From Candidatus Yanofskybacteria bacterium CG10_big_fil_rev_8_21_14_0_10_36_16 (GTDB lineage: Bacteria; Patescibacteriota; Minisyncoccia; 2-02-FULL-40-12; IGHO2-01-FULL-4-A): a DNA stretch of 64,000 nucleotides. The position numbers and the translations under genes are program-made. The notes beneath the pieces were generated by a model that saw nothing but the letters and a program-made list of their open reading frames with translations, was not told the DNA's origin and did not search any database. The stretch is taken from positions 24,533-88,532 of the forward strand of contig PCXQ01000006.1 in the NCBI GenBank assembly GCA_002794035.1, in the 5' to 3' direction. Shown here piece by piece: positions 1-37,300 of this stretch. How positions within the stretch are numbered: the first letter of the stretch is position 1; every line of letters starts with the position of its first letter.

Positions 1-1082
1 TTGTCGGTGTTGTTATAACCTTTTCTCTTTTGCTTATTTTTAATCTCATTTTACCTTCAATGTTTGATAACTCAGAATTTATATCTCTGGGAGCATTGTT
101 TATGCTGCCATTTATCACATTTACTTTTTATTCCATAACAAAACGTCAATTCCTTGATGTAAAAATAATAGCTACTGAAATCTTTGCAATTGTACTATCT
201 ATAATAGTTTTGTTTGATGTAATTGTCGCTAAAGATCTTGGAACAGTAATTCTAAGATCCGGTATTTTCTTAATAGTCCTATCATTTAATATTTTAATTG
301 TAAAAAGCGTTTGGAACGAGGTTAAACAAAAAGAAAAACTTGAAATATTGGCTAAAAAATTACAATCAACAAACGACAGGCTTAAGGAACTAGACATGCT
401 CAAATCTCAATTTTTGTCTTTTGCTTCCCATCAAGTCAAAGCACCAATGGCCATTGTAAAAGGATATGCTGATTTAATAGCCAAAGGAGATTATGGCGAA
501 GTACCTGAAGAAGTCAAAAACACAGCAAATAAAATCAAGAACTCAGCCGACAAAATGATAAGTCTCGTAGAAGAACTTCTGAACCTCAGAAAAATAGAAG
601 AAGGGAAAATAGAATACGACATGAAAACAAAAGATATAACATTTATAATAAAAGAGGTGGTAGACGAGCTACAAACATTGGCAGATGACAAGAAACTACA
701 CCTAAACTTTGAAACACCTACCAAACAATTCAATGCAAAAATTGATGAGGGCAAATTCAAGCAAATCATCCAAAACTTAGTTGAGAACTCAATCAAATAC
801 ACTGAGGAAGGCTGGATAAAAGTAACTATTGAAGAAAAAGATGACAGTGCCTTAATAACAGTTTCCGATTCAGGTATTGGCATGAGCAAAGAAACAACAA
901 ATGATCTTTTTGAACAATTCCATCGCGGTTCTGGAAAAAGCAGATCTATTAAAGGCACAGGGCTTGGTCTTTATATAGCAAAAAAGATGATAGAAGCACA
1001 CAACGGCAAGGTGTGGGCAGAATCTGAAGGCGAAGGAAAAGGATCTCAATTTCATGTTCAGCTACCGTTAGAATATTCGTAG
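1..1082 (+). CDS. Membrane sensor histidine kinase (HisKA + HATPase_c), 5-prime end probably truncated by the window edge
   Basis: The reading frame is open back to position 1 (TTG at 30 is only the first in-frame start). The N-terminus is hydrophobic. H-box SFASHQVKAPM; ATP-binding G-boxes SDSGIGM and GTGLGLYIAKKMIEAHNGKVWAESEGEGKGSQF. Confidence 0.8.
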   Translation, partial: VGVVITFSLLLIFNLILPSMFDNSEFISLGALFMLPFITFTFYSITKRQFLDVKIIATEIFAIVLSIIVLFDVIVAKDLGTVILRSGIFLIVLSFNILIVKSVWNEVKQKEKLEILAKKLQSTNDRLKELDMLKSQFLSFASHQVKAPMAIVKGYADLIAKGDYGEVPEEVKNTANKIKNSADKMISLVEELLNLRKIEEGKIEYDMKTKDITFIIKEVVDELQTLADDKKLHLNFETPTKQFNAKIDEGKFKQIIQNLVENSIKYTEEGWIKVTIEEKDDSALITVSDSGIGMSKETTNDLFEQFHRGSGKSRSIKGTGLGLYIAKKMIEAHNGKVWAESEGEGKGSQFHVQLPLEYS

Positions 1083-1218
1083 TTTGCCGCTTATTATATA
1101 TCCCCAAAAAACATGGAGCGTATTCTATGTTTTTTTATTTTTAAATACTTAGGCATTATTACTTATTTTTAATCCCAGCTGTGGCTAATTCAATTTTTTG
1201 TTGTGTTATAATGATTTT

Positions 1219-1647
1219 ATGGAAAATCAATTAAAACAAACTATACTTATCGTTGATGACGAAAAAGATTTTAGGGAAATTTTAGTTACCAAACTAAAAA
1301 CATTGGGCGTTAACATAGTAGAAGCCGAAAATGGAGAAGAAGCGCTTGTAAAGCTTAAGGAGATCAAGCCTGATTTAATCATGCTAGACGTAAACATGCC
1401 AAAAATGAATGGGCCAGAAACGCTTTCCCAAATTAAAGCAAACCCTGAATGGGCAGACTTAAAGATAGTTTTTTTAACCAACTATGGTGAACCGCAACAA
1501 GAAGTTGCATGGACTGATGAAAGACTGGCCCGCGAAGCTGGGGCAATGGACTATATAAGAAAAAGTGATGACCTTGATACTATCATTGGAGAGGTAATAC
1601 CCCTTATCAGCCCGTCACAATTAGACGGCCCTGAAAATAACGGATAA
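1219..1647 (+). CDS. Single-domain response regulator (CheY-like REC)
   Basis: ILIVDDEKDF...LIMLDVNMPKMNG... carries the receiver-domain DD/D/T/K signature. ATG at 1219 lies in frame inside the longer TTG ORF (1198). A TATAAT-like box lies just upstream. Confidence 0.8.
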   Translation: MENQLKQTILIVDDEKDFREILVTKLKTLGVNIVEAENGEEALVKLKEIKPDLIMLDVNMPKMNGPETLSQIKANPEWADLKIVFLTNYGEPQQEVAWTDERLAREAGAMDYIRKSDDLDTIIGEVIPLISPSQLDGPENNG

Positions 1648-1759
1648 AATCAAAGACAAAATGTTAAATAACAAATATTTTCTAATTCAAATTTTAAAAA
1701 TTTGAGTTTTTAACATTGGATCTCAGTTTAATGCTTGTCCTAAATTTTAATTTGTAAAC

Positions 1760-3502
1760 ATGGCAAAAGATGTAAGTAAAACAATTTTAATAATAGACGA
1801 CAACCCTTTCATGGTTGAGATTTTAGCGAACGAACTTAAAAACTCAGGATTCAACATAGAAAAAGCTGACAGTGGAGAAAAAGGTATTAAAAAAATAAAG
1901 GATTCAAAACCTTCATTGCTTATACTTGATATGCCCCTGCCTGACAAAGCCGATGGATTTAAAACATTAAAAGAGATCAAAGAAAATTCTAAAGACTTGC
2001 CAATATTAATTGTTTCCAACAACGATACTGTAGAATTTAGAAAAAAGGTATTGGAGGAAGGTGTAAACGGATACTTAATAAAAGCATTTGCAGGAAAAGA
2101 CGAGGTCATACAAGCAGTTAATGAAATCATGGCAGGTAAAGTTATCATGCCATCTATGGAAGAACAACCGGCATCAGAAAAAACAAAAGATGAATCAGGT
2201 GAATCGGAAGGTAAGGATGAAAATAAAATTAAATACAAAAGCCCCTTCAGCTCAACAAGTATTAACATTGGGGTTCCACCAAAAATAAAAGCAAAAATAG
2301 AAAAAGCTTTAGTTTCACCACGTGCCGAGTTATCAATAATAAACCTTGTAAATGACTTGATAGAATACGCTTACCATGCTCGTGCATCAGATATTCACCT
2401 TGAGCCATACAGTGATAGATTTATTGCAAGAATGAGAATTGATGGCATACTTCATGATGTATTTTCACTTCCCAAAAATACACAATCAGAAATTATAGCC
2501 AGAATAAAAGTTCTTGCCGGAATGAGAACCGACGAACACCAAACCGCCCAGGATGGCAGATTTAAAGCAACAATAAAAAGCCCGCCCAAACAATTTGATA
2601 TTCGTGTTTCAATAGTACCAACATATTACGGAGAAAACTCTGTTCTTAGGCTTTTGGCCGAACAATCATCCATAAAAACCATAGAGGACTTGGCATTCTC
2701 ACCAGAAGACAAAGAAAGAATAAAACGTGCAATTAAAAAACCTTACGGCATGATACTTGTCACAGGACCAACTGGTTCAGGTAAATCAACCACTCTCTAT
2801 ACTGTAATTAGAGAATTAAACAAACGTTCAGTATCAATAATCACCATCGAAGATCCAGTGGAATACTCAGTAGAAGGAATAGACCAAATACAGGTAAACA
2901 CCCGAACAGGATTAACTTTTGCAACAGGATTAAGATCAATACTAAGACAAGACCCCAATGTCATTATGGTAGGAGAAATACGAGACAAGGAAACAGCATC
3001 TATTGCGGTTAATGCGGCCCTAACAGGCCACAAACTTCTTTCGACACTTCATACGAATGACGCCGCAACGACACTGCCTCGATTGTTGGACATGGAGGTC
3101 GAACCTTTCTTAATTGCCTCAACTGTTAATGTTGTGATAGGTCAGCGTCTTGTTAGAATGTTGTGCACAAAATGCAAGAAAAAAAGAAAAATGACTGAGA
3201 CCGAGCTAAAGAACCTCACCAAGAGCATCCCCGAAAAAATATTAGGCAATCATAAAGAATTTTATGAAGTAGGCGGATGTGAAGTTTGTGGCGATACCGG
3301 ATACTTTGACAGAATGGGCATTTATGAAATTTTAGAAATGAATGATGAAATAAGAAGCGCAATATTAAGAAGAGCGGACTCAAGTGAAATAAACGAAATA
3401 GCAACAAAAAGCGGAATGAGTACTCTGCTTGAAGACGGATTTAAAAAAGTCGTTTCGGGACTGACAACGATTGAAGAATTATTAAGAGTTGTCAAAGAAT
3501 AA
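1760..3502 (+). CDS. Type IV pilus/T2SS assembly ATPase (PilB/GspE family) with an N-terminal REC receiver domain in place of the usual N1 domain
   Basis: N-terminus ILIIDDNPFMVEIL...SLLILDMPLPDKADGF...ILIVSNN...GYLIK is a complete REC domain with the acceptor Asp. C-terminal half has Walker A GPTGSGKSTT, the His box LLSTLHTNDAA, and a tetracysteine CTKC...CEVC motif typical of GspE/PilB. Confidence 0.85.
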   Translation: MAKDVSKTILIIDDNPFMVEILANELKNSGFNIEKADSGEKGIKKIKDSKPSLLILDMPLPDKADGFKTLKEIKENSKDLPILIVSNNDTVEFRKKVLEEGVNGYLIKAFAGKDEVIQAVNEIMAGKVIMPSMEEQPASEKTKDESGESEGKDENKIKYKSPFSSTSINIGVPPKIKAKIEKALVSPRAELSIINLVNDLIEYAYHARASDIHLEPYSDRFIARMRIDGILHDVFSLPKNTQSEIIARIKVLAGMRTDEHQTAQDGRFKATIKSPPKQFDIRVSIVPTYYGENSVLRLLAEQSSIKTIEDLAFSPEDKERIKRAIKKPYGMILVTGPTGSGKSTTLYTVIRELNKRSVSIITIEDPVEYSVEGIDQIQVNTRTGLTFATGLRSILRQDPNVIMVGEIRDKETASIAVNAALTGHKLLSTLHTNDAATTLPRLLDMEVEPFLIASTVNVVIGQRLVRMLCTKCKKKRKMTETELKNLTKSIPEKILGNHKEFYEVGGCEVCGDTGYFDRMGIYEILEMNDEIRSAILRRADSSEINEIATKSGMSTLLEDGFKKVVSGLTTIEELLRVVKE

Positions 3503-3580
3503 AATTAAATAATTAAATAATTTAAATTGAAAAAATTTAACCTACAAAAACTATTTCTTCATATCTCCCTAAAGGAGCAA

Positions 3581-4600
3581 ATGCTTTTTGCTAAACACAT
3601 GTCAGTAATGATAGGTTCCGGCATGCAAGTCATACAAAGCTTAAACACACTTAAGGAACAGGTGGACTCTCGTTCATTTAAAATGATTTTGGATGATTTA
3701 ATAAATGACACAAAAAGCGGGCAATTTTTGTCCACCAGCTTAGAAAAATACAAAAATGTATTCAGTGAATTTTTTATAAACGTAATAAGGGTCGGAGAAG
3801 CAAGCGGAACACTGCCTGAAAACTTTAAATACCTTGCCGAAGAACTTAAAAAACGACAAGAACTAGCAAACAAAATAAAAGGTGCGATGGTTTACCCAGT
3901 AATAATATTGATAGCAACATTTGGCATAACAGGATTGCTGGTATTTTTCATATTTCCCAAGATACTCCCCGTGCTTAAAAGCATAGATGTAGAACTGCCT
4001 GTTTTGACAGTATATTTTATTTCAATATCTGAATTCACCTTCAAATATGGTTACTGGTTATTTGGCGGTGTGATTGCCCTAATTATAGGAATATGGGGCA
4101 TATTAAGAATCAGGCCTGTAAAATTTTTGTGGCATAAAATAATACTAAAAATACCCATAGTTAACAAAATGTCACAAGCTATAAACATGATAAAATTTTC
4201 AAGAACCCTGGGACTTCTTTTAAAAAGTGACGTAAAAATAGTGGAATCACTAAACATCACATCAAACACTATCAGTAATCTGGTTTATCAAAAAGCAATC
4301 AGAGAAACTGCTAACAGTGTTCGTATGGGTGATCAAATATCAAAATATTTAGCGACAAAGCCGCATCTTTTCCCAAAACTTTCAACCCAGATGATATCAG
4401 TCGGGGAAAACACAGGAAAATTAGATGAATCAGCTTTTTATCTGGCTGATTTCTATGAAAGCGAATTGAATGAAACCACCAAAACTCTTTCAAATGCAAT
4501 AGAGCCCATCCTTCTTCTGGCAATGGGACTTATCGTAGGATTTGTGGCACTAGCTATAATAACTCCTATATATAAAATAACACAAACATTGTCCCGTTAA
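3581..4600 (+). CDS. PilC/GspF-type inner-membrane platform protein (short, ~340 aa)
   Basis: GspF-family sequence pattern (MIGSGMQVIQSL..., GEASGTLPENFKYLAEEL) with hydrophobic segments. ATG at 3581 is preceded by AAGGAG; the longer TTG ORF from 3527 is less likely. Confidence 0.8.
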   Translation: MLFAKHMSVMIGSGMQVIQSLNTLKEQVDSRSFKMILDDLINDTKSGQFLSTSLEKYKNVFSEFFINVIRVGEASGTLPENFKYLAEELKKRQELANKIKGAMVYPVIILIATFGITGLLVFFIFPKILPVLKSIDVELPVLTVYFISISEFTFKYGYWLFGGVIALIIGIWGILRIRPVKFLWHKIILKIPIVNKMSQAINMIKFSRTLGLLLKSDVKIVESLNITSNTISNLVYQKAIRETANSVRMGDQISKYLATKPHLFPKLSTQMISVGENTGKLDESAFYLADFYESELNETTKTLSNAIEPILLLAMGLIVGFVALAIITPIYKITQTLSR

Positions 4601-4727: not shown

Positions 4728-7421
4728 GTGAAATTTAAAATAGCAAAAATATTTTCTTATGATAATTTTCCCTTTTCAAGGGCGGGGTTCACAATCTTGG
4801 AAACTCTTATTGCTGCTGCACTATTTGTTATCATTGGCGGAGGTATATATTTAGCCTACTCAAATATACTTGAAATAATCACTAGGGGACGGCTTGATGC
4901 TGAAGCCGCTTTTATTTTGGAAAAAGAAATAGAAATAGTAAGGAACATGTCTTATGAAAATATTGGAACCACAACAGGAGCACCATTTGGCAAATTAAAA
5001 AGTGAAAAAACTGTAATAGCAGGTAATATACCTTTTGTTTTAAGAACTACTGTCAGAAACATAGACCATATTTTTGACGGCAAATTAAAAGGCAAGAATA
5101 ATATAGCCAATCTAGATGTAGGTGCTCAAGTTGGAGAAGGAGGGTTAAGAATGGAAAACCAATCTAAAATAATAGGGGATGTGTTTTCAAACGGCGACAT
5201 AATTGGAACCGGTAATTCTAATATTACAGGGAGTGCATGGGCTGCAGGATCTAGCAAAATTGATACAGTCAATGTGGCTAATGATGTTCATGCAAATACT
5301 ATACTTAACAGCTTTGTGGGAAGAGATGCTTATTACAAAAACATTTCCAATACAACTGTAGTTGGTAATTTGTTTTCTAATGTCCCGGATATTGAACCCC
5401 AAGAGCTTCCAATATCACCCCAACAACTGGCTGAATGGAAAACACTCGCTGCTGAAGGAGGCACTATCCCGACCCAAACCATAAGCGGATCCAATATTGT
5501 TCCTCTTGGACCAATTAAGATAAACGGAAATCTTACCATAAGAAATTCCGGACGCTTAATAATAACAGGGGTAATCTGGGTCACAGGAGATATTCTTATG
5601 CAAAATGATGCGGTAATTGAGATCGATCCGTCATTTGGAATGTTAAGCGGTCTGATAATCACAGACGGCAGTGTAATGATAAGAAATGAATCTGCCATAT
5701 GCGGGTCTGAGGGTTATAACACTTCAACCCAGACATGTAACCCGCCTGACTCAAGCTTTGTTTTCATAGTTTCAACAAAAGAAACCCTTGAAGATCCGGC
5801 TATAACAATAAATAACGCATCTGACTTAAGAACTCTTGTACATGCCAACAACGGAACAATAAATTTAAAAAATGCTATCCAACTAGTTAATGCTACGGGT
5901 TATTCAATTTTATTAGAAAACACCGCGTCAGTTATATATGACGAGGATTTGGATGATGTAGAATTTGGTTTTGGATCATTGGCATCAGTCCAAGAAGATC
6001 TGGCGCCAGGGGACTACAAACTGGTGGAAATTGAAATAAGCTGTCCTGAATGCACACTACCATTCACACCCAAAAAAGTTACCGCCACCGTAGCTCCACA
6101 GGGCCTTGAAACAGTAAGTAGAAATGGATCATTGTTTATTAATGCAATTGATGCATCGGGTGACTCCACAGCAAATGCTACTGTGCATGTTGTTAATAAT
6201 TCTGCCAATCCTCCAATTGACATCACTGATGTAACCGGCTCTGATGGCAAACTCCAGATCATTGATGTAGCCACAGGATCTTTTACATATGAAATTATTG
6301 TTTCTAAAGCAGGATATTCCACCGAACAAACATATCTGCCAGGGGAACCATCGAACCCCAATCCTGTTAAACCTCATGCAACGGTAGCAGAACAAGACGT
6401 AACTGAAATTACTTTCGTCATAGACAGAACTAGCACCATGAACCTAACCACAAGCGATTACATATGTTCTCCTGTGGCTGACATTAATTTCCTACAGGAA
6501 GGAAGCAAGCTCATAGGCCAAAGCCCAGATGTATTAAAATATTCTGAGAACCTTTCAACAGACACGAACGGAAATTACACAAACAACTCACTGGAATGGG
6601 ATACATACAATTTATCTCTAACTGATTCCGGATTTGACCTGGCTGGAACTGATATTCTTATGCCTTTGGTTATTAACCCAAACACCAACAGAAATATCAC
6701 CTGGACAGTAAAGCCCAAATTTTCTAATTCACTTCTCGCTGTAGCAAGAGACACAAACGGAAATTTTGTAAACGATGCCGAGGTTACAGTATCAGGCCCA
6801 GAAACCAAATCTGCTTTTACTGGTCTGGCATCCATATCTTATACTGACTGGTCGGGGGGCAATTATGACTCTCAAAGCGGAGGAATCGCAACAACGCCTG
6901 CGGGACAGCTAACCTTGGTTGATTTAGGAGGAAACAAATATGCTTCAAACAGTGAGGAGTGGTTAATTTCCAACACTATTGATTTTGGAACATCAACAAT
7001 ATTTTATGGAAAAATTGATTGGGACCCCAAAAACCAGCCAGCTCAAACTGGAGCAAATAGCTTAAAATTCCAAATAGCAGCAAACAACGATAACAACACC
7101 TGGAATTTTGTAGGACCTGATGGTTCCTCAAACACTTATTACACGACCGCAAAAACCGATATTTACAGTCAGCATGATGGGAATAGATATCTAAGATATA
7201 AGGCATATCTACAAACAGTAGACCAAGGGTTCACCCCATTATTAGATAAGATAATCATAGAGTTTAACTCAAGCTGTGTTCCTGAAGGGCAAGCCCTTCT
7301 AAACAATTTACCGAATGGATCATACAACATAACAATAGATCACCCGGGTTATAAAACATACAATGACAACATAAATATAAACAGCGAGTGGCAAGAATAT
7401 AGAGCCATTTTGGTTCCATAA
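4728..7421 (+). CDS. Giant (897 aa) pilin-like protein: class III signal peptide, N-terminal pilin helix, large beta-rich adhesin-like body
   Basis: GTG start. Leader MKFKIAKIFSYDNFPFSRAG|FTILETLIAAALFVII has G at -1, F at +1 and E at +5 (prepilin peptidase site). Body contains beta-helix-like G/N/S-rich repeats and carboxypeptidase-regulatory-like segments (GSLFINAIDASGDSTANATVHVVN...KAGYSTEQTY; ITIDHPGYKTYN). Confidence 0.7.
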   Translation: MKFKIAKIFSYDNFPFSRAGFTILETLIAAALFVIIGGGIYLAYSNILEIITRGRLDAEAAFILEKEIEIVRNMSYENIGTTTGAPFGKLKSEKTVIAGNIPFVLRTTVRNIDHIFDGKLKGKNNIANLDVGAQVGEGGLRMENQSKIIGDVFSNGDIIGTGNSNITGSAWAAGSSKIDTVNVANDVHANTILNSFVGRDAYYKNISNTTVVGNLFSNVPDIEPQELPISPQQLAEWKTLAAEGGTIPTQTISGSNIVPLGPIKINGNLTIRNSGRLIITGVIWVTGDILMQNDAVIEIDPSFGMLSGLIITDGSVMIRNESAICGSEGYNTSTQTCNPPDSSFVFIVSTKETLEDPAITINNASDLRTLVHANNGTINLKNAIQLVNATGYSILLENTASVIYDEDLDDVEFGFGSLASVQEDLAPGDYKLVEIEISCPECTLPFTPKKVTATVAPQGLETVSRNGSLFINAIDASGDSTANATVHVVNNSANPPIDITDVTGSDGKLQIIDVATGSFTYEIIVSKAGYSTEQTYLPGEPSNPNPVKPHATVAEQDVTEITFVIDRTSTMNLTTSDYICSPVADINFLQEGSKLIGQSPDVLKYSENLSTDTNGNYTNNSLEWDTYNLSLTDSGFDLAGTDILMPLVINPNTNRNITWTVKPKFSNSLLAVARDTNGNFVNDAEVTVSGPETKSAFTGLASISYTDWSGGNYDSQSGGIATTPAGQLTLVDLGGNKYASNSEEWLISNTIDFGTSTIFYGKIDWDPKNQPAQTGANSLKFQIAANNDNNTWNFVGPDGSSNTYYTTAKTDIYSQHDGNRYLRYKAYLQTVDQGFTPLLDKIIIEFNSSCVPEGQALLNNLPNGSYNITIDHPGYKTYNDNININSEWQEYRAILVP

Positions 7422-7432
7422 TAAACAAAACC

Positions 7433-7567
7433 ATGAATCTTCATAAAGTTTTAAAAAAATTACTTAGCAATATATCTCCCTCTTCAAGGGCGGGGTTTAC
7501 CCCGCTCTTGAAGATGGATGCGCCTTTTTATCTAATATTTATCAGTAATCACCCTGTTAGCTCATGA
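7433..7567 (+). pseudogene. Truncated duplicate of a pilin 5-prime end (44-codon ORF MNLHKVLKKLLSNISPSSRAGFTPLLK...); its TGA stop overlaps the ATG of the next pilin gene (ATGA)
   Basis: Nucleotides 7433-7500 nearly repeat 7564-7632. It encodes the same leader as the downstream pilin, then diverges. An embedded hairpin tcttcaagggcgggg-ttta-ccccgctcttgaaga is present. Confidence 0.45.
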
Positions 7568-8199
7568 ATCTTCTTAAAGTTTTAAAAAAAATACTTAGCA
7601 ATATATCTCCCTCTTCAAGGGCGGGGTTTACATTAATAGAAATAGTAATCGGATTGGCCATAATGTCTATTATAGTTATTTTAATCGGGTCTTTTGGGCT
7701 TGATATTTTAAGCTCTCAAACATCATTTAGTAGAACACTTGAAATACAAAGCGAAATAAATCAAACATTCAAAGAAATTATACCCGAAATTCGCTCAATG
7801 GAAGAATCAGAAAATGGAGCTTACCCAATTATTTCGGCATCATCGGATTCATTTGAATTTTATAGTGATGTGGATAGCAACGGAACAGTAGACAAAGTAA
7901 GATATTTTGTTGATGGAAGTGAGATGAAAAGAGGAACAACAAAACCCTCAGGCAACCCGCCTGTTTATGATCCGTCTGATGAAAAAATTAAAAGATTAAT
8001 TTCTGATTTAACTTTAACATCAGCGGGCATGTTTAAATATTACGATAAAAATTTCACGGGATCCGAAAACTCATTGGCAGTTCCCGTAAGCATACCGGCA
8101 ATAAGATTAATCAGAATTGAAGCAATAGTTGACCCCAAAATACCGGGCTCATCAAATTTTGTTTCATCAATGCAGGCAACGCCCCGTAATTTACGCTAA
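7564..8199 (+). CDS. Minor pilin / pseudopilin (prepilin-type N-terminus)
   Basis: Leader MNLLKVLKKILSNISPSSRAG|FTLIEIVIGLAIMSIIVIL with F at +1 and E at +5; 211 aa. Confidence 0.7.
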   Translation: MNLLKVLKKILSNISPSSRAGFTLIEIVIGLAIMSIIVILIGSFGLDILSSQTSFSRTLEIQSEINQTFKEIIPEIRSMEESENGAYPIISASSDSFEFYSDVDSNGTVDKVRYFVDGSEMKRGTTKPSGNPPVYDPSDEKIKRLISDLTLTSAGMFKYYDKNFTGSENSLAVPVSIPAIRLIRIEAIVDPKIPGSSNFVSSMQATPRNLR

Positions 8200-8223: not shown

Positions 8224-9651
8224 ATGAAATTAAAAATTAAAAATTTGGAAGCAGGCCAACTTTCCCTCTATGTTTTAATTTTCGGCTCTGTAGCTATTGT
8301 TATACTGTCTGGATTTATACTTTGGGCTGACTTAAGCTTTAAAGCAGCAATAAGACAAACAGATCGGCTTTTGGCGCTTGAAATTGCTGAATCAGGCATT
8401 GAATACTACCGCTGGCATTTAGCTCATGTCCCCGATGATTTTCAGGATGGAACAGGAGAACCAGGACCATATGAACATGATTTCTTTGATAAAAACGGGA
8501 ATATTATTGGCAAGTTTACGCTTGAAATAACTCCGCCCTCAGAATCCTCGGGAGTTGTAATTATAAAATCTACAGGAACCGTTGATGTTGATGATAGTAT
8601 TGAAAGAATAGTTGAAGCTCGACTAGCTCTGTCGTCTCTTGCGGGATATGCCATTGTTTCAAATGACAGCATACACATAGGGCAAGGCGCGGAAGTGTTT
8701 GGACCAATACATTCAAATGGAGGTATAAGCTTTAACGGGATTGCACACCATATTGTAACCAGCACCAGAGAAACATATGACGACCCCGCTCACGCAGGAG
8801 TGGAAGAATATGCAGTACACACCCACATAAACCCTGCTGACCCTCTACCCCCAAATCCATTACAAAAAAGACCTAGTGTTTTTAAAGCAGGGCGTGATTT
8901 CCCTGTTCCGGCGGTTGACTTTGATGGCATTGCCAGAGATTTGTCAGATATAAAAACCGGCGCTCAAGCTAGTGGATCATATTTTGGACCCTCAAGTGCT
9001 GAAGGTTATCGTGTAGTCCTGAAAACAAATGATACTTTTGATTTGTATAAAGTTAATTCACAAATTGCACCGCCTGCCGGATGCACCAACGACTTAAGCG
9101 AATCAGACTGGGGGACATGGAGTATCGATTCTGAAACATTTTTAAATAATTATGCACTTCCTTCAAACGGACTTATTTTTTTTGAAGATAACGCATGGAT
9201 TGAAGGTGAAATTGACGGTGAGCGTCTCACCTTGGCTACGGGTATTTTTCCTGAATCACCTGGTAATTACAAGCATATTATAGTAAACAATAATCTAACT
9301 TATTCTAATATTAATGCCCGAGACAAACTGGGCCTGGTAACACAAGGCAATATTATTATAGGAATGGAAAGCACTGGCGACTTGCGTATTGATGCAGCAA
9401 TAGTGGCTAAAAACGGGCGGGTAGGCAGGTTTTATTACAATCCAAGCTGTTCTCCGTACCACAACAGACAATCCTTAACAATTTATGGAATGATAGCAAC
9501 TAACGAAAAATATGGTTTTGCCTATACAGACGGTACAGGATATCAGCAACGATCCATTACATATGACCCAAGATTACTGTCTGATCCGCCTCCGGGGTTT
9601 CCTTCTGATGCCGGATTTTATGAAATTATAAGTTGGAAAGAATTAAAATAA
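8224..9651 (+). CDS. Pilus-associated protein with a PilX-N-like N-terminus (475 aa)
   Basis: N-terminal hydrophobic helix followed by ...DRLLALEIAESGIEYYRW, resembling the PilX N-terminal motif. Located inside the pilus operon. Confidence 0.55.
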   Translation: MKLKIKNLEAGQLSLYVLIFGSVAIVILSGFILWADLSFKAAIRQTDRLLALEIAESGIEYYRWHLAHVPDDFQDGTGEPGPYEHDFFDKNGNIIGKFTLEITPPSESSGVVIIKSTGTVDVDDSIERIVEARLALSSLAGYAIVSNDSIHIGQGAEVFGPIHSNGGISFNGIAHHIVTSTRETYDDPAHAGVEEYAVHTHINPADPLPPNPLQKRPSVFKAGRDFPVPAVDFDGIARDLSDIKTGAQASGSYFGPSSAEGYRVVLKTNDTFDLYKVNSQIAPPAGCTNDLSESDWGTWSIDSETFLNNYALPSNGLIFFEDNAWIEGEIDGERLTLATGIFPESPGNYKHIIVNNNLTYSNINARDKLGLVTQGNIIIGMESTGDLRIDAAIVAKNGRVGRFYYNPSCSPYHNRQSLTIYGMIATNEKYGFAYTDGTGYQQRSITYDPRLLSDPPPGFPSDAGFYEIISWKELK

Positions 9652-9803: not shown

Positions 9804-10274
9804 ATGAGTAAATTATTTAAGACGAAGAAATCACAGGCAGGGTTCACTCTTATTGAATTATTGGTTGTAATAGGTATTATTGCCATTTTGGCAGCGGTAG
9901 TTATTATCGCCATAAACCCAGCCCGTCAGTTCGCACAAGCCAGAAATACCCAGAGGTGGTCAAATGTTAACGCCATCTTAAATGCTATCGGCCAAAACAT
10001 GGCTGATAACCGTGGTGTATTTAACTGTGGTGTTGCATTGCCAGCATCAGCATCGGTTATGTCTAACACAGGATACAATATATACACCTGTATAGTTCCT
10101 ACTTATATATCAACCTTACCAGTGGATCCTTCAGTTGGAGTTAACAATTCTCCAACAGACTACAATACTGGCTACACTGTAGCAAGAGATGCTTCAACAG
10201 GTAGAATTACTGTTAGTGCTCCTGAAGGATTAAACGAAACCGCAGTTCCAGAAAACATTGGCGTAACTAGGTAG
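9804..10274 (+). CDS. pilA: Type IV major pilin (PilA-like)
   Basis: MSKLFKTKKSQAG|FTLIELLVVIGIIAILAAVVIIAI is the classic type IVa prepilin N-terminus. 156 aa. A strong terminator follows directly. Confidence 0.85.
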   Translation: MSKLFKTKKSQAGFTLIELLVVIGIIAILAAVVIIAINPARQFAQARNTQRWSNVNAILNAIGQNMADNRGVFNCGVALPASASVMSNTGYNIYTCIVPTYISTLPVDPSVGVNNSPTDYNTGYTVARDASTGRITVSAPEGLNETAVPENIGVTR

Positions 10275-10293
10275 TAATTCATATCACAAAACT

Positions 10294-10318
10294 AAAAACC
10301 GCCCACAAGGCGGTTTTT
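10294..10318 (+). terminator. Rho-independent terminator after the major pilin
   Basis: aaaaaccgcc-cacaa-ggcggttttt. Confidence 0.75.
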
Positions 10319-10430
10319 AGTTTTGTGCAATTTAATTTGTGAATATAAAAATTTAAAAATAATGGTATCATTAAAAAAAGACTAAAGATTTCTAACCAAC
10401 TTCTCCTAATTTAAAAAATGGGATTTGAAA

Positions 10431-10710: not shown

Positions 10711-12192
10711 TTGCGTAATTCATTCGGTACTGTTTTAGCTCAAAAAAATAATGTATTCATAAATCCTATACCTCTAAAGGAAGGCGGTACGCGTTTTCAT
10801 ATAAACCTGCCCGCCCAAGTTCCATTAAACATTAATGAGGTATATGAACTTGAAATAATAAGCGACATGGGAGGATTGGGCCTTTACTATGGAGCGAGCG
10901 TTGAAATACTTCAACACGACTCCGAATACAACATAAGCTATATCCCGGGCAAAGCTGTGATTGATAATGAAGAACAAAGCTGGACCTTTAAGTATGCAAC
11001 CTATGAGAGTCAGGATGCTCAGCCGCCAGAACTATCAAACATTTCAGCAACAGTAACAAACTCAAATACAGTAGAGATAAATTTCAATGCCAACGAGCCT
11101 GTTGACTGGTCAATTCTTTGGGGCTTTGAAGGCCAGGACTATAACCAGCAAACAGGATTTAAAAATTATTACACCTCATGTTTACCCGGTATAGGAACAT
11201 GCAATACACCTCTCCAAGTTAACCCAAATACTGCATATGATTACCAAATCATTGCCAAAGACGAATGGGGAAATATAAGCCAAAGAACAGGCTCTTTTAA
11301 CAGCGCGGTGGTTGATACCGAACCAACACCAACAGGATCACCCGAATCAACACCACCGCCTCAAGAAGTATTCTCAACTCCTCCTGCAATATCAGGCACA
11401 ACAATATCGGAATTAACAGATGATTATGTAAAAATAACCTGGCAAACAAATAAAGCCGCCAACTCCAGCTTGTTGATCAGCCTTGATCAAGACGGGAACA
11501 GTGTTGTTGCTAATGTGGGAGATGCAACTTATGAATTAGCTCACTCGCTAAGCGTCTCGGGTCTTGAACCAAACACTGAATACTTTGCAAGAATAACTTC
11601 AACAAATCCGGGGGTAGCATTCGTAGTCAGCAAAAATCTAGCCACAATAATATCAAGCAGTAACAACGATACATCCTCATGGCAAATATTAACATTCAAA
11701 ACCGCAGAAGCACCCCTACCCGATGAAGCCCCGAACAACGAACAACCCAGCAATAACGAAATTGAAACAAGTCAGGAAACAGATGGGATTGAATCAACTG
11801 TAAATATAAGCTGGCAGGCTCCTTCGGGCGGTGAACCCACGGGCGGATACAGAGTAGATGTTTTTGATGAAAATAATATTTTAGTAAAACAGATAACAGT
11901 TCCCGCAGGCGAGCACAGCACAACGGCCGAAGATTTGCCAAGAGGCGATTACACAGTAGTTGTTTATGAAGACAACGAAGGAACACTAGATAAAATTGCG
12001 CCTCCTGCAATAAGCCGTGCGCCAGAACCATCAATAACAAATACTCAAGTTGTAATAATTGGAATTTTGATTCTTGTCTTGGCAGGACTTATAAAGATCT
12101 GGCTAAGTGTAAGGAAGAAAAATAAGTTCAAAAAAACTATTACACCCCCTTCCTCAGATTCTTCAAGCGGAATAGAGCTTGGACAAATTTAA
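10711..12192 (+). CDS. Cell-surface protein with Fn3-like repeats, Thr/Pro-rich linker and a C-terminal TM anchor; the true start is probably upstream (about 10471), where the frame encodes a signal peptide
   Basis: The frame is open back to the stop at 10450 and encodes KINIAILISTVLLGIAIFPYTAKA|QD, but contains no ATG/GTG/TTG there. Fn3-like segments (VEINFNANEPVDWSILWGF; VKITWQTNKAANSSLLISL; VNISWQAPSGGEPTGGYRVDVFD). C-terminus VVIIGILILVLAGLIKIWLSVRKKNKFKK. Confidence 0.6.
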   Translation: MRNSFGTVLAQKNNVFINPIPLKEGGTRFHINLPAQVPLNINEVYELEIISDMGGLGLYYGASVEILQHDSEYNISYIPGKAVIDNEEQSWTFKYATYESQDAQPPELSNISATVTNSNTVEINFNANEPVDWSILWGFEGQDYNQQTGFKNYYTSCLPGIGTCNTPLQVNPNTAYDYQIIAKDEWGNISQRTGSFNSAVVDTEPTPTGSPESTPPPQEVFSTPPAISGTTISELTDDYVKITWQTNKAANSSLLISLDQDGNSVVANVGDATYELAHSLSVSGLEPNTEYFARITSTNPGVAFVVSKNLATIISSSNNDTSSWQILTFKTAEAPLPDEAPNNEQPSNNEIETSQETDGIESTVNISWQAPSGGEPTGGYRVDVFDENNILVKQITVPAGEHSTTAEDLPRGDYTVVVYEDNEGTLDKIAPPAISRAPEPSITNTQVVIIGILILVLAGLIKIWLSVRKKNKFKKTITPPSSDSSSGIELGQI

Positions 12193-18192: not shown

Positions 18193-19962
18193 ATGGGTAA
18201 CATTATAATAATAATCTTGGGTATTTTCGGCTTGTTTGTCGGTTTTTTGTCTTACCTTAAAAGCAGAGAACTTAAAACAAAGCTTCAAACCCACATCTCG
18301 CTTGATACAGCAAGAGAAGAGGAGCTCAGCCAAAGAGTTTTTGAGCTATCCATATTAAAAGAGCTAGGAGAACGAGTAGGTTATTCTTTGGACGTCCAAA
18401 AAATTGTGGATGTAATTACTGGCTCCTTGCACCAATTTATAGAGTACAGCGCGGTATCATATATGTTTCTTGAGCCGGAAAAGATTGTATTTAAAATTCA
18501 TCTTGAGAAATCAGTGGACAGAAAATTCATTGATAATGTACGCGACAGAATGTTGCAGTCCTTATCGGCATTAATGAACAAGGAATTCGACAAAAGCCAA
18601 GTTGAAGAGTTTCTTTCAGGCGCCATACTTGTAGAAGATTTAAAACAACCAGTAAGGTCATTTTTCAATATTCCTATAGTAATCGCCAACAAAGTCATGG
18701 GAATATTAACTATCGCCCATACGGAAATAGGACTATACAAAGAAAAAGAAATGAGCATGCTTTATCGCATAATGCAGCAAGCATCAAGTGCTGTAACTCG
18801 TTTGCAAGAAGTAGTTGAAATAGAACAAAGGAAATTAAACTCAATGGTTGAAAGCATGACAGAGGGGGTTATTATGACCGACAAAGATTACAGAATCTTG
18901 GTAGCTAATCCTGCAGCTAGATCCGCAGTTGGACTAGAACAAGAAAAAGAAGTAACAATTTTTGATTTCATTGATAAATTAGGGGATAAGCTAGACATAA
19001 AAAATAAACTTGAGGAAAGCATACGTTTAGACAAGGTTCTTGAAGTAGAAGAGTTGCTTATAAATGACAAATTTTTTCAAGTTTTTGTATCTCCGGTCAA
19101 AAGCAAACAGGGCATTGAGAAAGGCAAAATCCTCGGAGGCGTTGTTATATTCCATGACATAACAAATGAAAAAGAAGTTGAGAAATTAAGAGAAGACTTC
19201 ACTTCTATAATGGTTCACGAATTAAGAGCTCCTCTTGATGGAATAAAAAAGAGAGCCGAGGTACTTAAAGAAGGATTGGGTATGGCAAAAGACCAAGCAG
19301 GCAAAGACGAAATCATGTCTGTTATTTATCAAAATGCCTCCCACATGCTAGAATTGGTTAATGACCTTCTTGATGTAGCTAAAATTGAAGCAGGTAAATT
19401 TGAACTTCGTAGAGAACCTTCGAATATTAAACAGATAATGAAAGAAAGGGTCAACTTCTTCAAAATTCTAGCCGAAGATGCTAAAATTGACTTGAGTTTT
19501 CAAGCCGCAGAAAACGTACCCGACGATCTGAATTTTGACCCATTAAGAATAGAACAAGTTTTAAATAATCTTATTTCAAATGCAATAAAGTTTACTGATG
19601 CAGGCGGAAGAGTGGTCGTACAAGCATTGATTCATCAAAATGGAAACAACATATCAGAGGAAGCAATCAGCAGTGGCATTGAGTGGCTAATTGATCCAAA
19701 TGATCCCAAATTAAAAAATTATCCCGATTCTTTAATTGTTGCTGTTACCGATACGGGAATCGGATTATCAAAAGAAAACATAATCCAGCTTTTCAATAAG
19801 TTCAAACAACTCCAATCATCCGCAAAAAGGAAAGAAAAGAAAGGCACAGGTCTTGGTTTGGTCATAGCAAAAGGAATTGTTGAAAGCCACAATGGAGTCA
19901 TTGGGGTAGGTTCTGAGGAAGGAAAGGGGAGCACATTTTACTTTACAATACCTATCAATTAA
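18193..19962 (+). CDS. Sensor histidine kinase (TM, GAF-like, PAS-like, HisKA, HATPase_c)
   Basis: H-box MVHELRAPLDG; G-boxes TDTGIGLS and GTGLGLVIAKGIVESHNGVIGVGSEEGKGSTFYFTIP. Confidence 0.8.
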   Translation: MGNIIIIILGIFGLFVGFLSYLKSRELKTKLQTHISLDTAREEELSQRVFELSILKELGERVGYSLDVQKIVDVITGSLHQFIEYSAVSYMFLEPEKIVFKIHLEKSVDRKFIDNVRDRMLQSLSALMNKEFDKSQVEEFLSGAILVEDLKQPVRSFFNIPIVIANKVMGILTIAHTEIGLYKEKEMSMLYRIMQQASSAVTRLQEVVEIEQRKLNSMVESMTEGVIMTDKDYRILVANPAARSAVGLEQEKEVTIFDFIDKLGDKLDIKNKLEESIRLDKVLEVEELLINDKFFQVFVSPVKSKQGIEKGKILGGVVIFHDITNEKEVEKLREDFTSIMVHELRAPLDGIKKRAEVLKEGLGMAKDQAGKDEIMSVIYQNASHMLELVNDLLDVAKIEAGKFELRREPSNIKQIMKERVNFFKILAEDAKIDLSFQAAENVPDDLNFDPLRIEQVLNNLISNAIKFTDAGGRVVVQALIHQNGNNISEEAISSGIEWLIDPNDPKLKNYPDSLIVAVTDTGIGLSKENIIQLFNKFKQLQSSAKRKEKKGTGLGLVIAKGIVESHNGVIGVGSEEGKGSTFYFTIPIN

Positions 19963-20044: not shown

Positions 20045-20431
20045 ATGTCTAAAAAAATACTTGTCGTTGATGACGAAGAATTTGTATTAAAAGCATTGTC
20101 TGACAAGCTTCAACAGTCAGGATTTGAGGTGTTTGAAGCATCAGACGGCGAAGAAGGTCTTGATGCAGCATTCAAAAACCATCCAGATCTAATTTTGCTT
20201 GATGTTGTAATGCCAAAAATGGACGGCATTGAGGTCATGAAAAAACTAAGGCAAGACAACTGGGGCAAGGATGTGCCATTGATTCTTCTTACCCGTCTTG
20301 AACCAGACGATAATATGCTTCAGGAAATTATCGCTAATAAACCCACTTACTACTTAGTTAAAAGCAATTACAGAATAGAGGACGTAGTAAATAAAGTAAA
20401 AGAAAAACTCGGAATGCCTGTGGAAGAATAA
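20045..20431 (+). CDS. Single-domain response regulator (CheY-like REC)
   Basis: ILVVDDEEFV...LILLDVVMPKMDG...LILLTRLEP. Confidence 0.8.
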   Translation: MSKKILVVDDEEFVLKALSDKLQQSGFEVFEASDGEEGLDAAFKNHPDLILLDVVMPKMDGIEVMKKLRQDNWGKDVPLILLTRLEPDDNMLQEIIANKPTYYLVKSNYRIEDVVNKVKEKLGMPVEE

Positions 20432-24807: not shown

Positions 24808-25965
24808 ATGGAAATTAAAATTGATTATGAGAAAGAAAAACAACTAAGAGAGGAGCTGTCTAAAAAAGACGATCCTGACAGCAAGCGCTTAAAGCGCTTT
24901 TTGGATATGCCAGACCTCACCCGCACGCCGGGCAGTCCTATACACGAAATAACAAAACGAATCATAGACCTGCCTGATTTTAAGGATTTTGATACCGTAG
25001 AAGCCCCTGAAATAGTACCGGCTGATATTAGCTTTGATCTCTTTAATTTCCCGGAAGATCACCCAGCCCGAAGCAAATCCGACACATACTATGCGGATGA
25101 CAAAAACATTCTCCGCACTCACACAACTGTCATGTGGTACTACTACCTTATGAATGAAAAGATAAGAGAAAGGATTAAAAATCTTGAATCAATAGGCTCT
25201 TTGTCTCATGGAAAAGTTTATCGAAAAGATGAAATAGACCGAAATCACATGAACGTTTTCCACCAAATGGATGGATGGTATTTAACACCCCGCGATAAAA
25301 AAGTCATCGGCATTGAAGATCTACAGGACGTTTTAGTAAAAATTGCACAGGCAGTTTTTGGTAAAGACATTAAATACAGATTTAACCAAGATGAGTTCCC
25401 ATACACAGATCCGAGCGTTGAAATGGAAGTTGAAGTTGGCCCTTCGACAAACTCAGGACAAGCTCGCTGGATTGAGGTGCTTGGCAGTGGAATAGTTAGG
25501 GGAGTCGTGCTTGAAAAACTAGACGTTGATTCAAAAATATACAACGGATGGGCTTTTGGGTTCGGTCTTGAGCGTTTGGCAATAATTAGCATGGACTTGC
25601 CCGATATTCGATTGCTTTGGTCAGATGATTCAAGAGTAAAAAAACAGCTTAAACTAGGCAAAAAATTCAAAGAAGTAAGCAAATACCCGCCAATCACAAG
25701 AGATATTTCGTTTATTGTTTCAAAAGATTTTGTACCAAATAATTACTTCGATTTAATAAGAGATTTAGGCGGAGATCTCATAGAGGAGGTACAGCTGATA
25801 GACAAATATGAAGATGACAGCAAGTTTGGTAAAGATAAAATGAGTTATACCTATCGCATAATCTACCGAAGCATGGAACGTACTCTCACAAACGAAGAGG
25901 TAGATGAAATAAATGATAAAGTTTATGAGCAAACAAAATCTCAGTTCCAAGCTGAATTGAGATAG
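24808..25965 (+). CDS. pheS: Phenylalanine--tRNA ligase alpha subunit
   Basis: Class II motifs: FPEDHPARSKSDTYY, FHQMDGW, GFGLERLAIISMDLPDIRLL. Confidence 0.85.
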   Translation: MEIKIDYEKEKQLREELSKKDDPDSKRLKRFLDMPDLTRTPGSPIHEITKRIIDLPDFKDFDTVEAPEIVPADISFDLFNFPEDHPARSKSDTYYADDKNILRTHTTVMWYYYLMNEKIRERIKNLESIGSLSHGKVYRKDEIDRNHMNVFHQMDGWYLTPRDKKVIGIEDLQDVLVKIAQAVFGKDIKYRFNQDEFPYTDPSVEMEVEVGPSTNSGQARWIEVLGSGIVRGVVLEKLDVDSKIYNGWAFGFGLERLAIISMDLPDIRLLWSDDSRVKKQLKLGKKFKEVSKYPPITRDISFIVSKDFVPNNYFDLIRDLGGDLIEEVQLIDKYEDDSKFGKDKMSYTYRIIYRSMERTLTNEEVDEINDKVYEQTKSQFQAELR

Positions 25966-25972
25966 TACTTTA

Positions 25973-26443
25973 GTGGAAATATTACTGAAAAAATCATACT
26001 TAACAATGATTAAAAATAGCATAGGAACAAAAATGTTCCGAAATCTTTTTGCCTATTTAGAAAATGGTGAGGAAAAAGACATTTTACAAAACGGCAAAAA
26101 CTCCTGTGCTGTTTTTGTTTCTGCTGTGTTATATATGAGCAAATTAATTGAAAGCATGCACGCAACAGTTGCCAGCACAGTGAAAGATCTGGAAAAATCA
26201 GGATGGGGAAAGGTTGAAAATCCGAAATCAGGAGACGTTTTGGTTTGGGAACCATTTCTCTGGCCCGGAGATAAAGAAAAACATGAGCACATAGGTTTCT
26301 ATATTGGAGATGAAAAAGCCATAAGCAATGACTCCAAATCCGGCACACCACAAGAACATCACATCACATACGGCGAAGAAAGCGGTTCTCCTGTTAGAAA
26401 AATTACGGCAATTTATAGACATCCAAAAATAAATAGTAAATAA
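25973..26443 (+). CDS. Hypothetical protein with a possible papain-like (CHAP/NlpC-P60-like) Cys/His arrangement
   Basis: NGKNSCAVFVSAVL ... HEHIGFYIGD pattern only; no signal peptide; weak assignment. Confidence 0.35.
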   Translation: MEILLKKSYLTMIKNSIGTKMFRNLFAYLENGEEKDILQNGKNSCAVFVSAVLYMSKLIESMHATVASTVKDLEKSGWGKVENPKSGDVLVWEPFLWPGDKEKHEHIGFYIGDEKAISNDSKSGTPQEHHITYGEESGSPVRKITAIYRHPKINSK

Positions 26444-31194: not shown

Positions 31195-31728
31195 ATGATA
31201 AGAAATATTTTACCTTCATTTTTAATTGGTGCTGCCTTCTTCGGGATTTTTGTGTTGGTACTACCTCAATATGATTCCATTAAAACTCTTTGGGGTGAAA
31301 TAGCATCAAGACAAGAAATATTAGACGAAAGACGAGAGGCCTTACAATCTGTAACAGCACTAGGAAGACAAATAAGGAATAGCGAAGAACTTGAAAGATT
31401 AGAGTTACTAGTCCCCACAAGCGCTAAAACAGAGGAAATAATTTCCAGCTTAGACAATATTGCTGCCCAATCAGGATTAACAATGAATAGTCTTACTGTT
31501 GCAGGCACTACAAACAACACAAAAAGAGGCGGCAGTTCCGGATATAAAAACGTACTAATAGACATTTCCCTCAATGGAAGCTACAACTCATTACTTAATT
31601 TCCTATCATTAATTGAACAAAACTTAAGGGTATACGACATAAATGAAATCTCTATGACAACTGATCGCGGTAGCTTCCTAATAAACCTAACCATTAACGC
31701 TTACCAATTAGAGGTACCCGAGGGCTAA
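31195..31728 (+). CDS. PilO-like pilus assembly protein
   Basis: Single N-terminal TM, coiled coil (EILDERREALQSV), C-terminal alpha/beta region; ordered directly after PilN. Confidence 0.5.
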   Translation: MIRNILPSFLIGAAFFGIFVLVLPQYDSIKTLWGEIASRQEILDERREALQSVTALGRQIRNSEELERLELLVPTSAKTEEIISSLDNIAAQSGLTMNSLTVAGTTNNTKRGGSSGYKNVLIDISLNGSYNSLLNFLSLIEQNLRVYDINEISMTTDRGSFLINLTINAYQLEVPEG

Positions 31729-31754
31729 TAAATAATTAATATTAAAATAATCTA

Positions 31755-32120
31755 ATGGCAAATTCTATAAGACAAAAAAGCTCTACTAAAACCATGCTAA
31801 TTATGATGGTATTTTTGGGTATAGCAGCGGGTTATATTTTTTATTTTCAAACGCTAAAAGACCAAGCGCTAAGCATTGCACCATTGCCAATTAGAACAGG
31901 CGATGATCTTACTAAGCTAAAAGATAAAAAACTTAATTTGACTGTTTTTAATAATAATATTTATAAAACCCTTCGTATTTTTGGAGAGGTTCCTGTAGAC
32001 CCAGGCATAGTTGGCAAAGAAAACCTTTTTGATCTAATAAGCGTACCAGAGGAAGCACTCCAGCCTTCTCCACAGCCTGAAGAATCTGCGCCACCAGAAA
32101 CAACCCCACAAGCTCAATAA
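31755..32120 (+). CDS. Small TM protein with a Pro-rich C-terminus (possible PilP-like component)
   Basis: Position in the operon; single TM; PSPQPEESAPPETTP tail. Confidence 0.35.
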   Translation: MANSIRQKSSTKTMLIMMVFLGIAAGYIFYFQTLKDQALSIAPLPIRTGDDLTKLKDKKLNLTVFNNNIYKTLRIFGEVPVDPGIVGKENLFDLISVPEEALQPSPQPEESAPPETTPQAQ

Positions 32121-32234
32121 CATTTAATAAAAATAAAAACTAATAAATCAGGCTATAGTACTAAAACCTTGAACAACCAAAACACGGGATATCTCAGACT
32201 TGGCACTTTTAGCTTATGGTTTATCTAAAAGTAA

Positions 32235-34025: not shown

Positions 34026-34038
34026 AGGTTTGCAATTA

Positions 34039-34134
34039 AACATCAATTCCAGTTAAAAACTCCCGATGCCTTGCATCGAGAATCCTCGATAATTAAATCA
34101 AGGAACTCGAAAAATTTATTGGGATTCCAACACA
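34039..34134 (+). promoter_or_regulatory. Conserved structured leader element, copy 3 (ends at the GTG start of pilT)
   Basis: acatcaattccagttaaaaactcccgatgc-ctt-gcatcgagaatcctcgataattaaatcaaggaactcgaaaaatttattgggattcc. Loop and stem substitutions keep the pairing (cgatgc/gcatcg; atcgag/ctcgat). Confidence 0.55.
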
Positions 34135-35205: not shown

Positions 35206-35233
35206 AACTTATAAATAGTTTCTAAGTTTATAA

Positions 35234-36448: not shown

Positions 36449-36621
36449 AGTTAATTTTTACTTTTTTAATATTTTATGTTTGATATTAATGTTGATAACA
36501 TTCTTGCTAGTAACCTATGATATAAAATATAATTAAATTAAATAGCTATAATATTAATTACAGCTTAAATTTTGTTTGACAGTTCGTTAGATAATAGTCG
36601 GATGTATCCGTCAATTGTCCA

Positions 36622-37284: not shown

Positions 37285-37300
37285 AATACTCTTAGTTAGT

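Follow-up and report, generated by a model that had tools for sequence, protein, structure and literature searches.

We analysed a 64,000-nucleotide stretch of DNA (hereafter the window) from Candidatus Yanofskybacteria, an uncultured groundwater bacterium, with ~36% G+C and almost every gene on the plus strand. At positions 1760-3502 (+) it holds a single unbroken open reading frame (ORF) of 580 amino acids that joins a response-regulator receiver domain (REC), a linker and a PilB/GspE-type pilus ATPase in one polypeptide. Genes for a membrane histidine kinase and a stand-alone REC lie upstream, and genes for a PilC-type platform protein and prepilins lie downstream. This arrangement had been proposed from the letters alone in an earlier annotation of the same stretch (the original prediction); every ORF it described was present where it had been placed, and the gene context agreed with its description. 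The product is 100% identical to a protein annotated as hypothetical in a Candidatus Yanofskybacteria metagenome-assembled genome (MAG) of the Parcubacteria group (Patescibacteria/candidate phyla radiation, CPR).

The REC domain of the fusion protein occupies residues 1-125 (1760-2134, +). It is followed by a disordered linker of ~43 residues rich in Ser, Lys and Glu (residues 126-168; 2135-2263, +) and by an N1-less ATPase consisting of N2 and the catalytic C-terminal domain (CTD; 2264-3502, +). Residues 9-120 match Pfam Response_reg (PF00072; E 1e-25; score 90.3 bits, cutoff 30.2), and residues 192-576 match T2SSE (PF00437; E 5e-122, 407.6 bits against a cutoff of 24.9) over profile positions 7-370 of 370, thus covering N2 and CTD. 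These E-values are far beyond chance. A sequence search of the PDB matched residues 6-134 to REC proteins (E ~1e-15) and residues 189-578 to PilB/PilF (E ~1e-103), and returned no solved chain spanning both halves. The MshEN (N1) domain gave no Pfam match anywhere in the 580 residues. Against NCBIfam the fusion scored highest with the GspE equivalog (TIGR02533; 505.4, cut-off 630.25), and it also fell short of the cut-offs for the PilB equivalog (TIGR02538; 482.2, cut-off 675.65) and ComGA (NF041000; 255.9, cut-off 300; E 3e-76). Only residues ~182 to 579 align to the PilB and GspE equivalog profiles, whose cut-offs are missed because the N1 region is lacking.

Key motifs of both halves can be read from the letters. 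The phospho-acceptor pocket of the fused REC is intact, with the acidic pair D13-D14, the acceptor D57 (in LLILDMPLPD; codon 1928-1930) and K108, and the switch residues are S86 and Y105. The Walker A motif of the ATPase is GPTGSGKSTT (2765-2794), the Asp box/Walker B reads LRQDPNVIMVGEIRDK and the His box LTGHKLLSTLHTND. A motif test for extension ATPases likewise found the Asp box/Walker B DPNVIMVGEIRD and the His box TGHKLLSTLHTND. The tetracysteine zinc motif (Cys469/472/507/510, at 3164-3289) typifies extension rather than retraction ATPases. The fused motor is predicted to hydrolyse ATP and to extend filaments.

An AlphaFold2 monomer model, built on a 119-sequence alignment, had a mean predicted local distance difference test score (pLDDT) of 82.6 and a predicted TM-score (pTM) of 0.67. 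Residues 8-124 were modelled as a canonical (beta-alpha)5 receiver with pLDDT ~88-91, so that the assignment of residues 1-120 to the REC family in the original prediction is borne out by both profile and fold. Segment 134-170 was coil of low confidence (block-mean pLDDT 32-55, below 50 at 134-155), and N2 and CTD began at about residue 174. When the modelled ATPase half was searched with Foldseek, it matched Geobacter PilB (5tsh) with 44% identity and E 5e-43 for the top-ranked chain C, and with a TM-score (normalised to the target) of up to 0.91 and a root-mean-square deviation of 2.5 A for chain E; it superposed also on Thermus PilF and Vibrio GspE. The predicted PilB/GspE type of this half is thus supported by the PDB sequence match and by structure.

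Proteins of this build are not confined to this genome but make up a conserved Parcubacteria family, and REC/T2SSE fusions of other architectures exist in other bacteria. The identical 580-residue protein was found on five contigs from different sources (ENA, Logan and others), and 119 of the 120 best database hits share the REC plus T2SSE architecture, at 55-69% identity and 97-100% coverage. Since it was drawn from the best 120 hits, the family size of at least 119 protein clusters is a lower bound. All named family members among these hits belong to Yanofskybacteria, Paceibacterota, Minisyncoccia or Patescibacteria. The linker is poorly conserved, its span between reference positions 125 and 190 ranging from 47 to 68 residues across the family, and the frame is never broken there. 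A frameshift or assembly join near 2150-2300, which had been named as a possible fault, was not found.

Within the family, 118/119 members retain the acceptor D57 and 118/119 retain K108, and the acidic (E/D-D) pair is kept in every member having the N-terminus. This pattern indicates that the phospho-acceptor pocket is clearly under selection. The aromatic switch Y105 is less uniform (92/119). In the ATPase half, Walker A, Asp box, His box and Cys4 residues are nearly all invariant among the 119 homologues, and the remaining substitutions are conservative. The fused REC is much less conserved (~41% identity) than the ATPase (~65%).

Relatives of the ATPase half were sought in a scan of one genome per GTDB species. 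The closest (57-66% identity) are ATPases of ~405-450 amino acids without an N-terminal domain, all in Patescibacteria-type MAGs, with a short PilC downstream and then either the same large minor-pilin set or a run of two or three small pilins. In a neighbour-joining tree built from the ATPase domain, 121/121 REC-fused proteins fell in one clade with no unfused member inside, and the short N1-less ATPases formed the sister group of that clade; because this is a distance tree, its topology is indicative only. The window protein falls in a small basal subclade of the fused family. Because the nearest relatives are short and N1-less and the fused proteins form one clade, a single addition of REC to a motor without N1 is the most likely origin, as judged from these sequence comparisons. 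The original prediction had described a REC in place of the usual N1 domain: a REC is indeed present and N1 absent, but replacement of N1 is unsupported, since the nearest relatives have no N1 to replace. A local 42% match between the fused and stand-alone RECs of this genome had hinted that the former arose as a duplicate of the latter. Cross-locus identities do not support such a duplication: fused and stand-alone RECs share a mean of 26% identity (8 loci) versus 29% to unrelated Patescibacteria RECs.

Upstream of the fusion, the window opens within the histidine kinase gene (1-1082, +), which contributes the C-terminal 359 codons of a 547-residue protein, with the HisKA H-box SFASHQV and an HATPase_c domain; the first 187 codons lie before position 1. 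On a longer public contig the gene is complete (L001 7680-9323), with HisKA at residues 322-389 and HATPase_c at 436-545. A hydropathy scan revealed ~7-8 N-terminal transmembrane segments ahead of HisKA, and kinase orthologues match Pfam PF16927 (HisKA_7TM). The next gene encodes a stand-alone single-domain response regulator of 142 amino acids (1219-1647, +; Response_reg E 3e-24) that has DD, D, T and K at the canonical positions and lacks an output domain. CheA, CheW and MCP domains were absent from the locus, the kinase being of the classical HisKA plus HATPase_c type with a multi-transmembrane N-terminus. Profile searches found no DNA-binding output domain in the stand-alone REC or the kinase, and the motor is therefore the only evident output of the circuit.

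Directly upstream of the seven-transmembrane (7TM) kinase, before the start of the window, lies a group of genes that recurs in several relatives (L001 2473-7597; also L087 613-5919, L084 and L085), for an aromatic amino-acid lyase, an unknown protein of ~480-495 amino acids, and ThiF/E1-like and nitroreductase-like proteins. This group might make or modify a small molecule; a link to the kinase signal is speculative.

Downstream, a gene for a short PilC/GspF-type platform protein with two T2SSF domains (3527-4600, +; 357 amino acids, or 339 from an alternative start) begins 24 nucleotides after the fusion gene and is followed by three N_methyl proteins. A ComGB profile matched this PilC with E 3e-35 and a score of 122, below the cut-off of 240. 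It is followed by an 897-residue protein with a prepilin leader (G|FTILE) and CarboxypepD_reg/PEGA-like domains (4728-7421, +), a putative large minor pilin or adhesin whose orthologues have only ~585-600 residues, and by a 211-residue minor prepilin (G|FTLIE; 7564-8199, +). A 475-residue protein (8224-9651, +) has a hydrophobic N-terminus without Glu5 (G|QLSLY) and is GspK/PilX-like by operon position and N-terminus; it gave no Pfam or NCBIfam hit. The series ends with a 156-residue major-pilin candidate (G|FTLIELLVV; 9804-10274, +). A perfect 19-bp stem-loop directly 3' of this gene (10285-10327, +) is a probable operon terminator, consistent with a transcription unit ending at this hairpin. 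Beyond it lies the gene for a 493-residue fn3-domain protein with a C-terminal transmembrane anchor (10711-12192, +), syntenic with the pilus operon in relatives. No PilT, PilM/N/O or PilD gene is present in the operon, leaving the fusion as its only motor, and neither are secretin, GspL/M or ComE genes. A promoter scan of the window gave 50 hits versus a shuffled expectation of 42 +/- 6, which is no excess, and we draw no promoter conclusions. Rfam returned three tRNAs from the window and nothing else.

A 69-nucleotide direct repeat (97% identity; 7432-7500 and 7563-7631) was detected directly after the stop codon of the 897-residue gene. It duplicates the 5' end of the 211-residue minor-pilin gene, prepilin leader included, and its upstream copy opens a 44-codon ORF (7433-7567) that overlaps a GC-rich hairpin.

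The survey of related genomes that had been suggested extended these observations to other loci. The order 7TM kinase, free REC, REC-ATPase, T2SSF protein, ~585-residue prepilin, proteins of ~200 and ~480 residues and ~150-residue pilin is kept in 8/9 fused loci. One to several genes are sometimes inserted between the kinase and the free REC, the ~585-residue prepilin carries CarboxypepD_reg, and an fn3 protein of ~550 residues often ends the series. In L083, L086 and L087 the free REC gene runs 8 nucleotides into the fusion gene. Near unfused sister loci, a kinase or REC is almost never found. In the same three relatives, L083 (17047-17613), L086 (16854-17405) and L087 (16871-17410), the pilus operon is followed at once by a Peptidase_C39_2 gene of opposite strand, which is absent from the corresponding position in the window.

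The window contains a second, canonical type IV pilus cluster (31195-38128, +), which the original prediction had also recognized. It encodes PilO (31195-31728, +), a PilB with MshEN (32235-34025, +), PilT (34135-35205, +), PilC (35234-36448, +), a pilin (36622-37284, +) and the only prepilin peptidase of the window, PilD (37208-38128, +). A regular-expression search with the published motif for cyclic di-GMP (c-di-GMP) gave no match in the MshEN domain of this PilB. Downstream of PilD, two further prepilins are encoded (38863-39477 and 39592-40143), followed by a 324-residue protein with a Laminin_G_3/ConA-like lectin fold (40852-41826), a possible pilus-associated adhesin. Between the two pilus loci is a second two-component pair, a PAS-HisKA-HATPase_c kinase (18193-19962) followed by an output-less single-domain REC (20045-20431). 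Three RECs are thus encoded in this region, and a DNA-binding domain is found in none of them.

We consider it fairly probable, on the evidence of domains and gene order, that the REC-fused motor is controlled post-translationally by the adjacent kinase and serves a separately regulated adhesive pilus; phosphorylation by that kinase would be the most likely mechanism. The kinase would sense a signal at the membrane or envelope and phosphorylate D57 of the tethered REC. The phosphorylation state of the REC would then control the motor through REC-REC or REC-ATPase contacts, and altered contacts may affect hexamer assembly, ATP turnover or engagement of PilC; as to the direction of control, activation is our guess. 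The stand-alone REC may be a second branch of the same kinase, and here too we can only guess at its role, either a phosphate sink, by which the signal would be sharpened, or a partner that reaches the motor or platform by diffusion. The filament would most likely be an adhesive pilus deployed on demand and regulated apart from the retractile PilB/PilT pilus at 31-38 kb. Direct control of a PilB by a REC is plausible because there are precedents acting in trans. DrdR, a REC-REC protein of Xanthomonas, binds both PilB and PilT, whose ATPase activity it increases (PMC13507683), and PatA-type regulators of Synechocystis (PixG/PixE) bind PilB1 and PilC (bioRxiv 10.1101/2021.06.11.447907). These two cases, together with a review of PilB control (PMC11656802), agree with the earlier remark that CheY-like proteins, in the systems known, exert their effect on PilB in trans.

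Several observations weigh against this interpretation. At the Thr/Ser switch position of the REC, 106/119 family members have Phe, and canonical Thr-Tyr coupling is therefore impossible in most of the family; a hydroxyl residue is kept in few (3 Ser and 1 Thr among 119), the window protein having Ser86. The AlphaFold2 monomer model gives a flexible tether, without confident docking of the REC on the ATPase. One fused locus, L088, is an orphan fusion between infC and rpe, and its 5.5-kb contig contains neither a kinase nor PilC or pilins. Finally, the assignment of the filament as an adhesive pilus draws solely on domain content (CarboxypepD_reg, fn3).

The operon might instead build a short Com-like pseudopilus for DNA uptake or one for protein secretion like that found in type II secretion systems (T2SS), with the two-component proteins switching competence or secretion, a reading that we regard as unlikely. 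An N1-less ATPase beside a short PilC is the arrangement of ComGA and ComGB, both of which give profile matches here (E 3e-76 and 3e-35), the top NCBIfam score of the motor is with GspE (505 bits), and the operon contains neither PilT nor PilMNO. None of the curated cut-offs is reached, however, whether for ComGA (256 < 300), ComGB (122 < 240), GspE (505 < 630) or PilB (482 < 676). The very large minor pilins (897 and 475 residues) and the syntenic fn3 surface protein are atypical of Com or T2SS operons, and the genes that such systems would lead one to look for, those for a secretin, GspL/M and ComE, are missing from the operon.

It is also conceivable, and in our judgement distinctly unlikely, that the fused REC is a phosphorylation-independent pseudo-receiver that serves in dimerization, localization or docking, while the kinase signals via the stand-alone REC alone. 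The receiver-like domain of TadZ/CpaE is an analogue of such a domain. The REC of FimX, without an acceptor Asp, still directs localization (PMC11656802). The Phe at the switch position and the far lower conservation of the REC than of the ATPase would fit this explanation. True pseudo-receivers, however, usually lose the acceptor Asp, the Lys and the acidic pair, which are near-invariant in this family, and the window protein retains Ser86 and Tyr105 besides. The kinase, moreover, is syntenic in 8/9 fused loci and almost never present at the unfused sister loci.

We hold it very unlikely that the REC tethered by fusion at the pilus base acts mainly as a sink or decoy for phosphate, with the stand-alone REC as the true effector that binds the motor or platform, or that these roles are reversed. 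Each complete locus has one kinase beside two RECs without output domains, the canonical Thr/Ser that most fused RECs lack is retained in the stand-alone ones, and a role as phosphate sink has been proposed for PilH of the Pil-Chp system (PMC11656802). A sink, however, has no need of fusion to a motor; covalent linkage to the target argues for direct action, and the fusion is stable across a clade of at least 119 clusters. Sequence data alone cannot separate a sink from direct control of the motor by its own REC. That the fusion is an artefact of frameshift, misassembly or a wrong gene call merging a REC gene with a short ATPase gene is vanishingly improbable: the linker is low-complexity sequence and a separate REC gene followed by a short ATPase gene does occur, e.g. 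in L073, but the reading frame is continuous within the window, the five contigs come from different sources, the fused clade is monophyletic, and L073 is itself no split or frameshifted fusion, its upstream REC being orthologous to the stand-alone REC, not the fused one, and its ATPase lying outside the fused clade.

Two further observations concern aminoacyl-tRNA synthetases elsewhere in the window. Leucyl-tRNA synthetase (51843-54767; 974 residues) carries a NUDIX domain (PF00293; E 1e-13, residues 399-516), an unusual insertion just past the editing domain (227-385). A 385-residue protein (24808-25965) combines a PheRS alpha core (tRNA-synt_2d) with a C-terminal FDX-ACB anticodon-binding domain, a single-chain, mitochondrial-type architecture, and the adjoining ORF (25973-26443) has no Pfam hit.

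Should the tethered REC act as proposed, it would make this the first type IV filament motor to be a response regulator in its own right, and the Phe in place of the Thr switch in most members would point to non-canonical receiver signalling. A motor with its own phospho-receiver would be the shortest possible route from signal to filament. The kinase core, the REC-ATPase and the free REC would make a clean in vitro system for studying how a REC is coupled to a PilT-like hexamer. Cultivated Patescibacteria/CPR are obligate episymbionts, and pili have been implicated in host binding (bioRxiv 10.1101/2024.11.25.624915). Because genomes of Patescibacteria/CPR have few regulators, a dedicated kinase on a second pilus motor would mark a signal-dependent attachment step. 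We put forward tentatively, as a possible reading, a wholly post-translational circuit in Parcubacteria-group episymbionts in which signals from a 7TM kinase reach both a free REC and the REC tethered to the motor, the circuit directly gating the extension of a dedicated, non-retractile adhesion pilus.

To our knowledge, all characterized inputs to the extension motor are either small-molecule sensors fused to PilB (MshEN/c-di-GMP) or separate binders (PilZ/FimX, PilG/PilH, DrdR, PatA-type). No description of a REC-PilB/GspE fusion of any kind was found in the literature searched: a review from 2024 on how PilB is controlled treats c-di-GMP/MshEN, PilZ/FimX and Pil-Chp and has no covalent REC-PilB (PMC11656802), and the paper on MshEN notes REC-MshEN combinations, not REC-ATPase motors (PMC5013675). 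The architecture is conserved in a Parcubacteria clade, present in databases under generic names, and undescribed in that literature. Other fusions of REC and T2SSE were seen when 1.84 billion representatives were searched with fusion residues 1-330. The matches listed include REC-MshEN-T2SSE proteins of ~690 residues (roughly a dozen clusters, from Endomicrobiia and Armatimonadetes MAGs), MshEN-T2SSE-REC fusions of 700-880 residues, and the types REC-x-T2SSE-REC and MshEN-T2SSE-REC-REC-REC. An unrelated MAG (GCA_028278255.1; L090 4781-12051) has two tandem MshEN-T2SSE-REC genes (709 and 778 residues) followed by REC, CheC-like, REC and REC genes. These other fusions differ in that MshEN is retained or the REC is C-terminal; they belong to separate lineages and are uncharacterized, from uncultured organisms. 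Neither of the two such loci inspected had PilC or pilins adjacent. Among the fusions inspected, those of the Parcubacteria family alone were seen to lie in a complete pilus operon together with their kinase.

The MshEN-bearing ATPases PilB, PilF, MshE and GspE share with the fusion the N2 plus CTD motor, with its Walker A, Asp box, His box and Cys4, and the logic of a sensory domain fused N-terminally to a motor. MshEN binds c-di-GMP (PMC5013675), whereas the sensor here is a two-component receiver, joined to the motor by a disordered linker, and its input would be phosphorylation. The short N1-less ATPases of Patescibacteria, whose characterized analogue is ComGA/ComGB of Firmicutes, share the same downstream set from short PilC to pilin; they differ in having no REC, and in almost none is a kinase or REC adjacent.

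PilG/PilH of the Pil-Chp system, DrdR and the PatA-type regulators are REC proteins that likewise control the extension motor post-translationally. They are, however, separate polypeptides, mostly fed by CheA-type kinases, while the REC described here is covalently attached and encoded beside a HisKA 7TM kinase. In TadZ/CpaE of Tad pili, a receiver-like domain is fused to a ParA/MinD ATPase and has a localization role without phospho-acceptor chemistry; TadZ is not a T2SSE motor, whereas in the fusion the acceptor pocket is intact. The best mechanistic analogy is offered by the NtrC family, in which an N-terminal REC governs the assembly or activity of the hexameric P-loop ring ATPase to which it is fused. 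There is no homology between the two outside the REC: the ATPase of NtrC is an AAA+ sigma54 activator with transcription as its output, while that of the fusion is a PilT-like ASCE secretion ATPase with filament assembly as its output.

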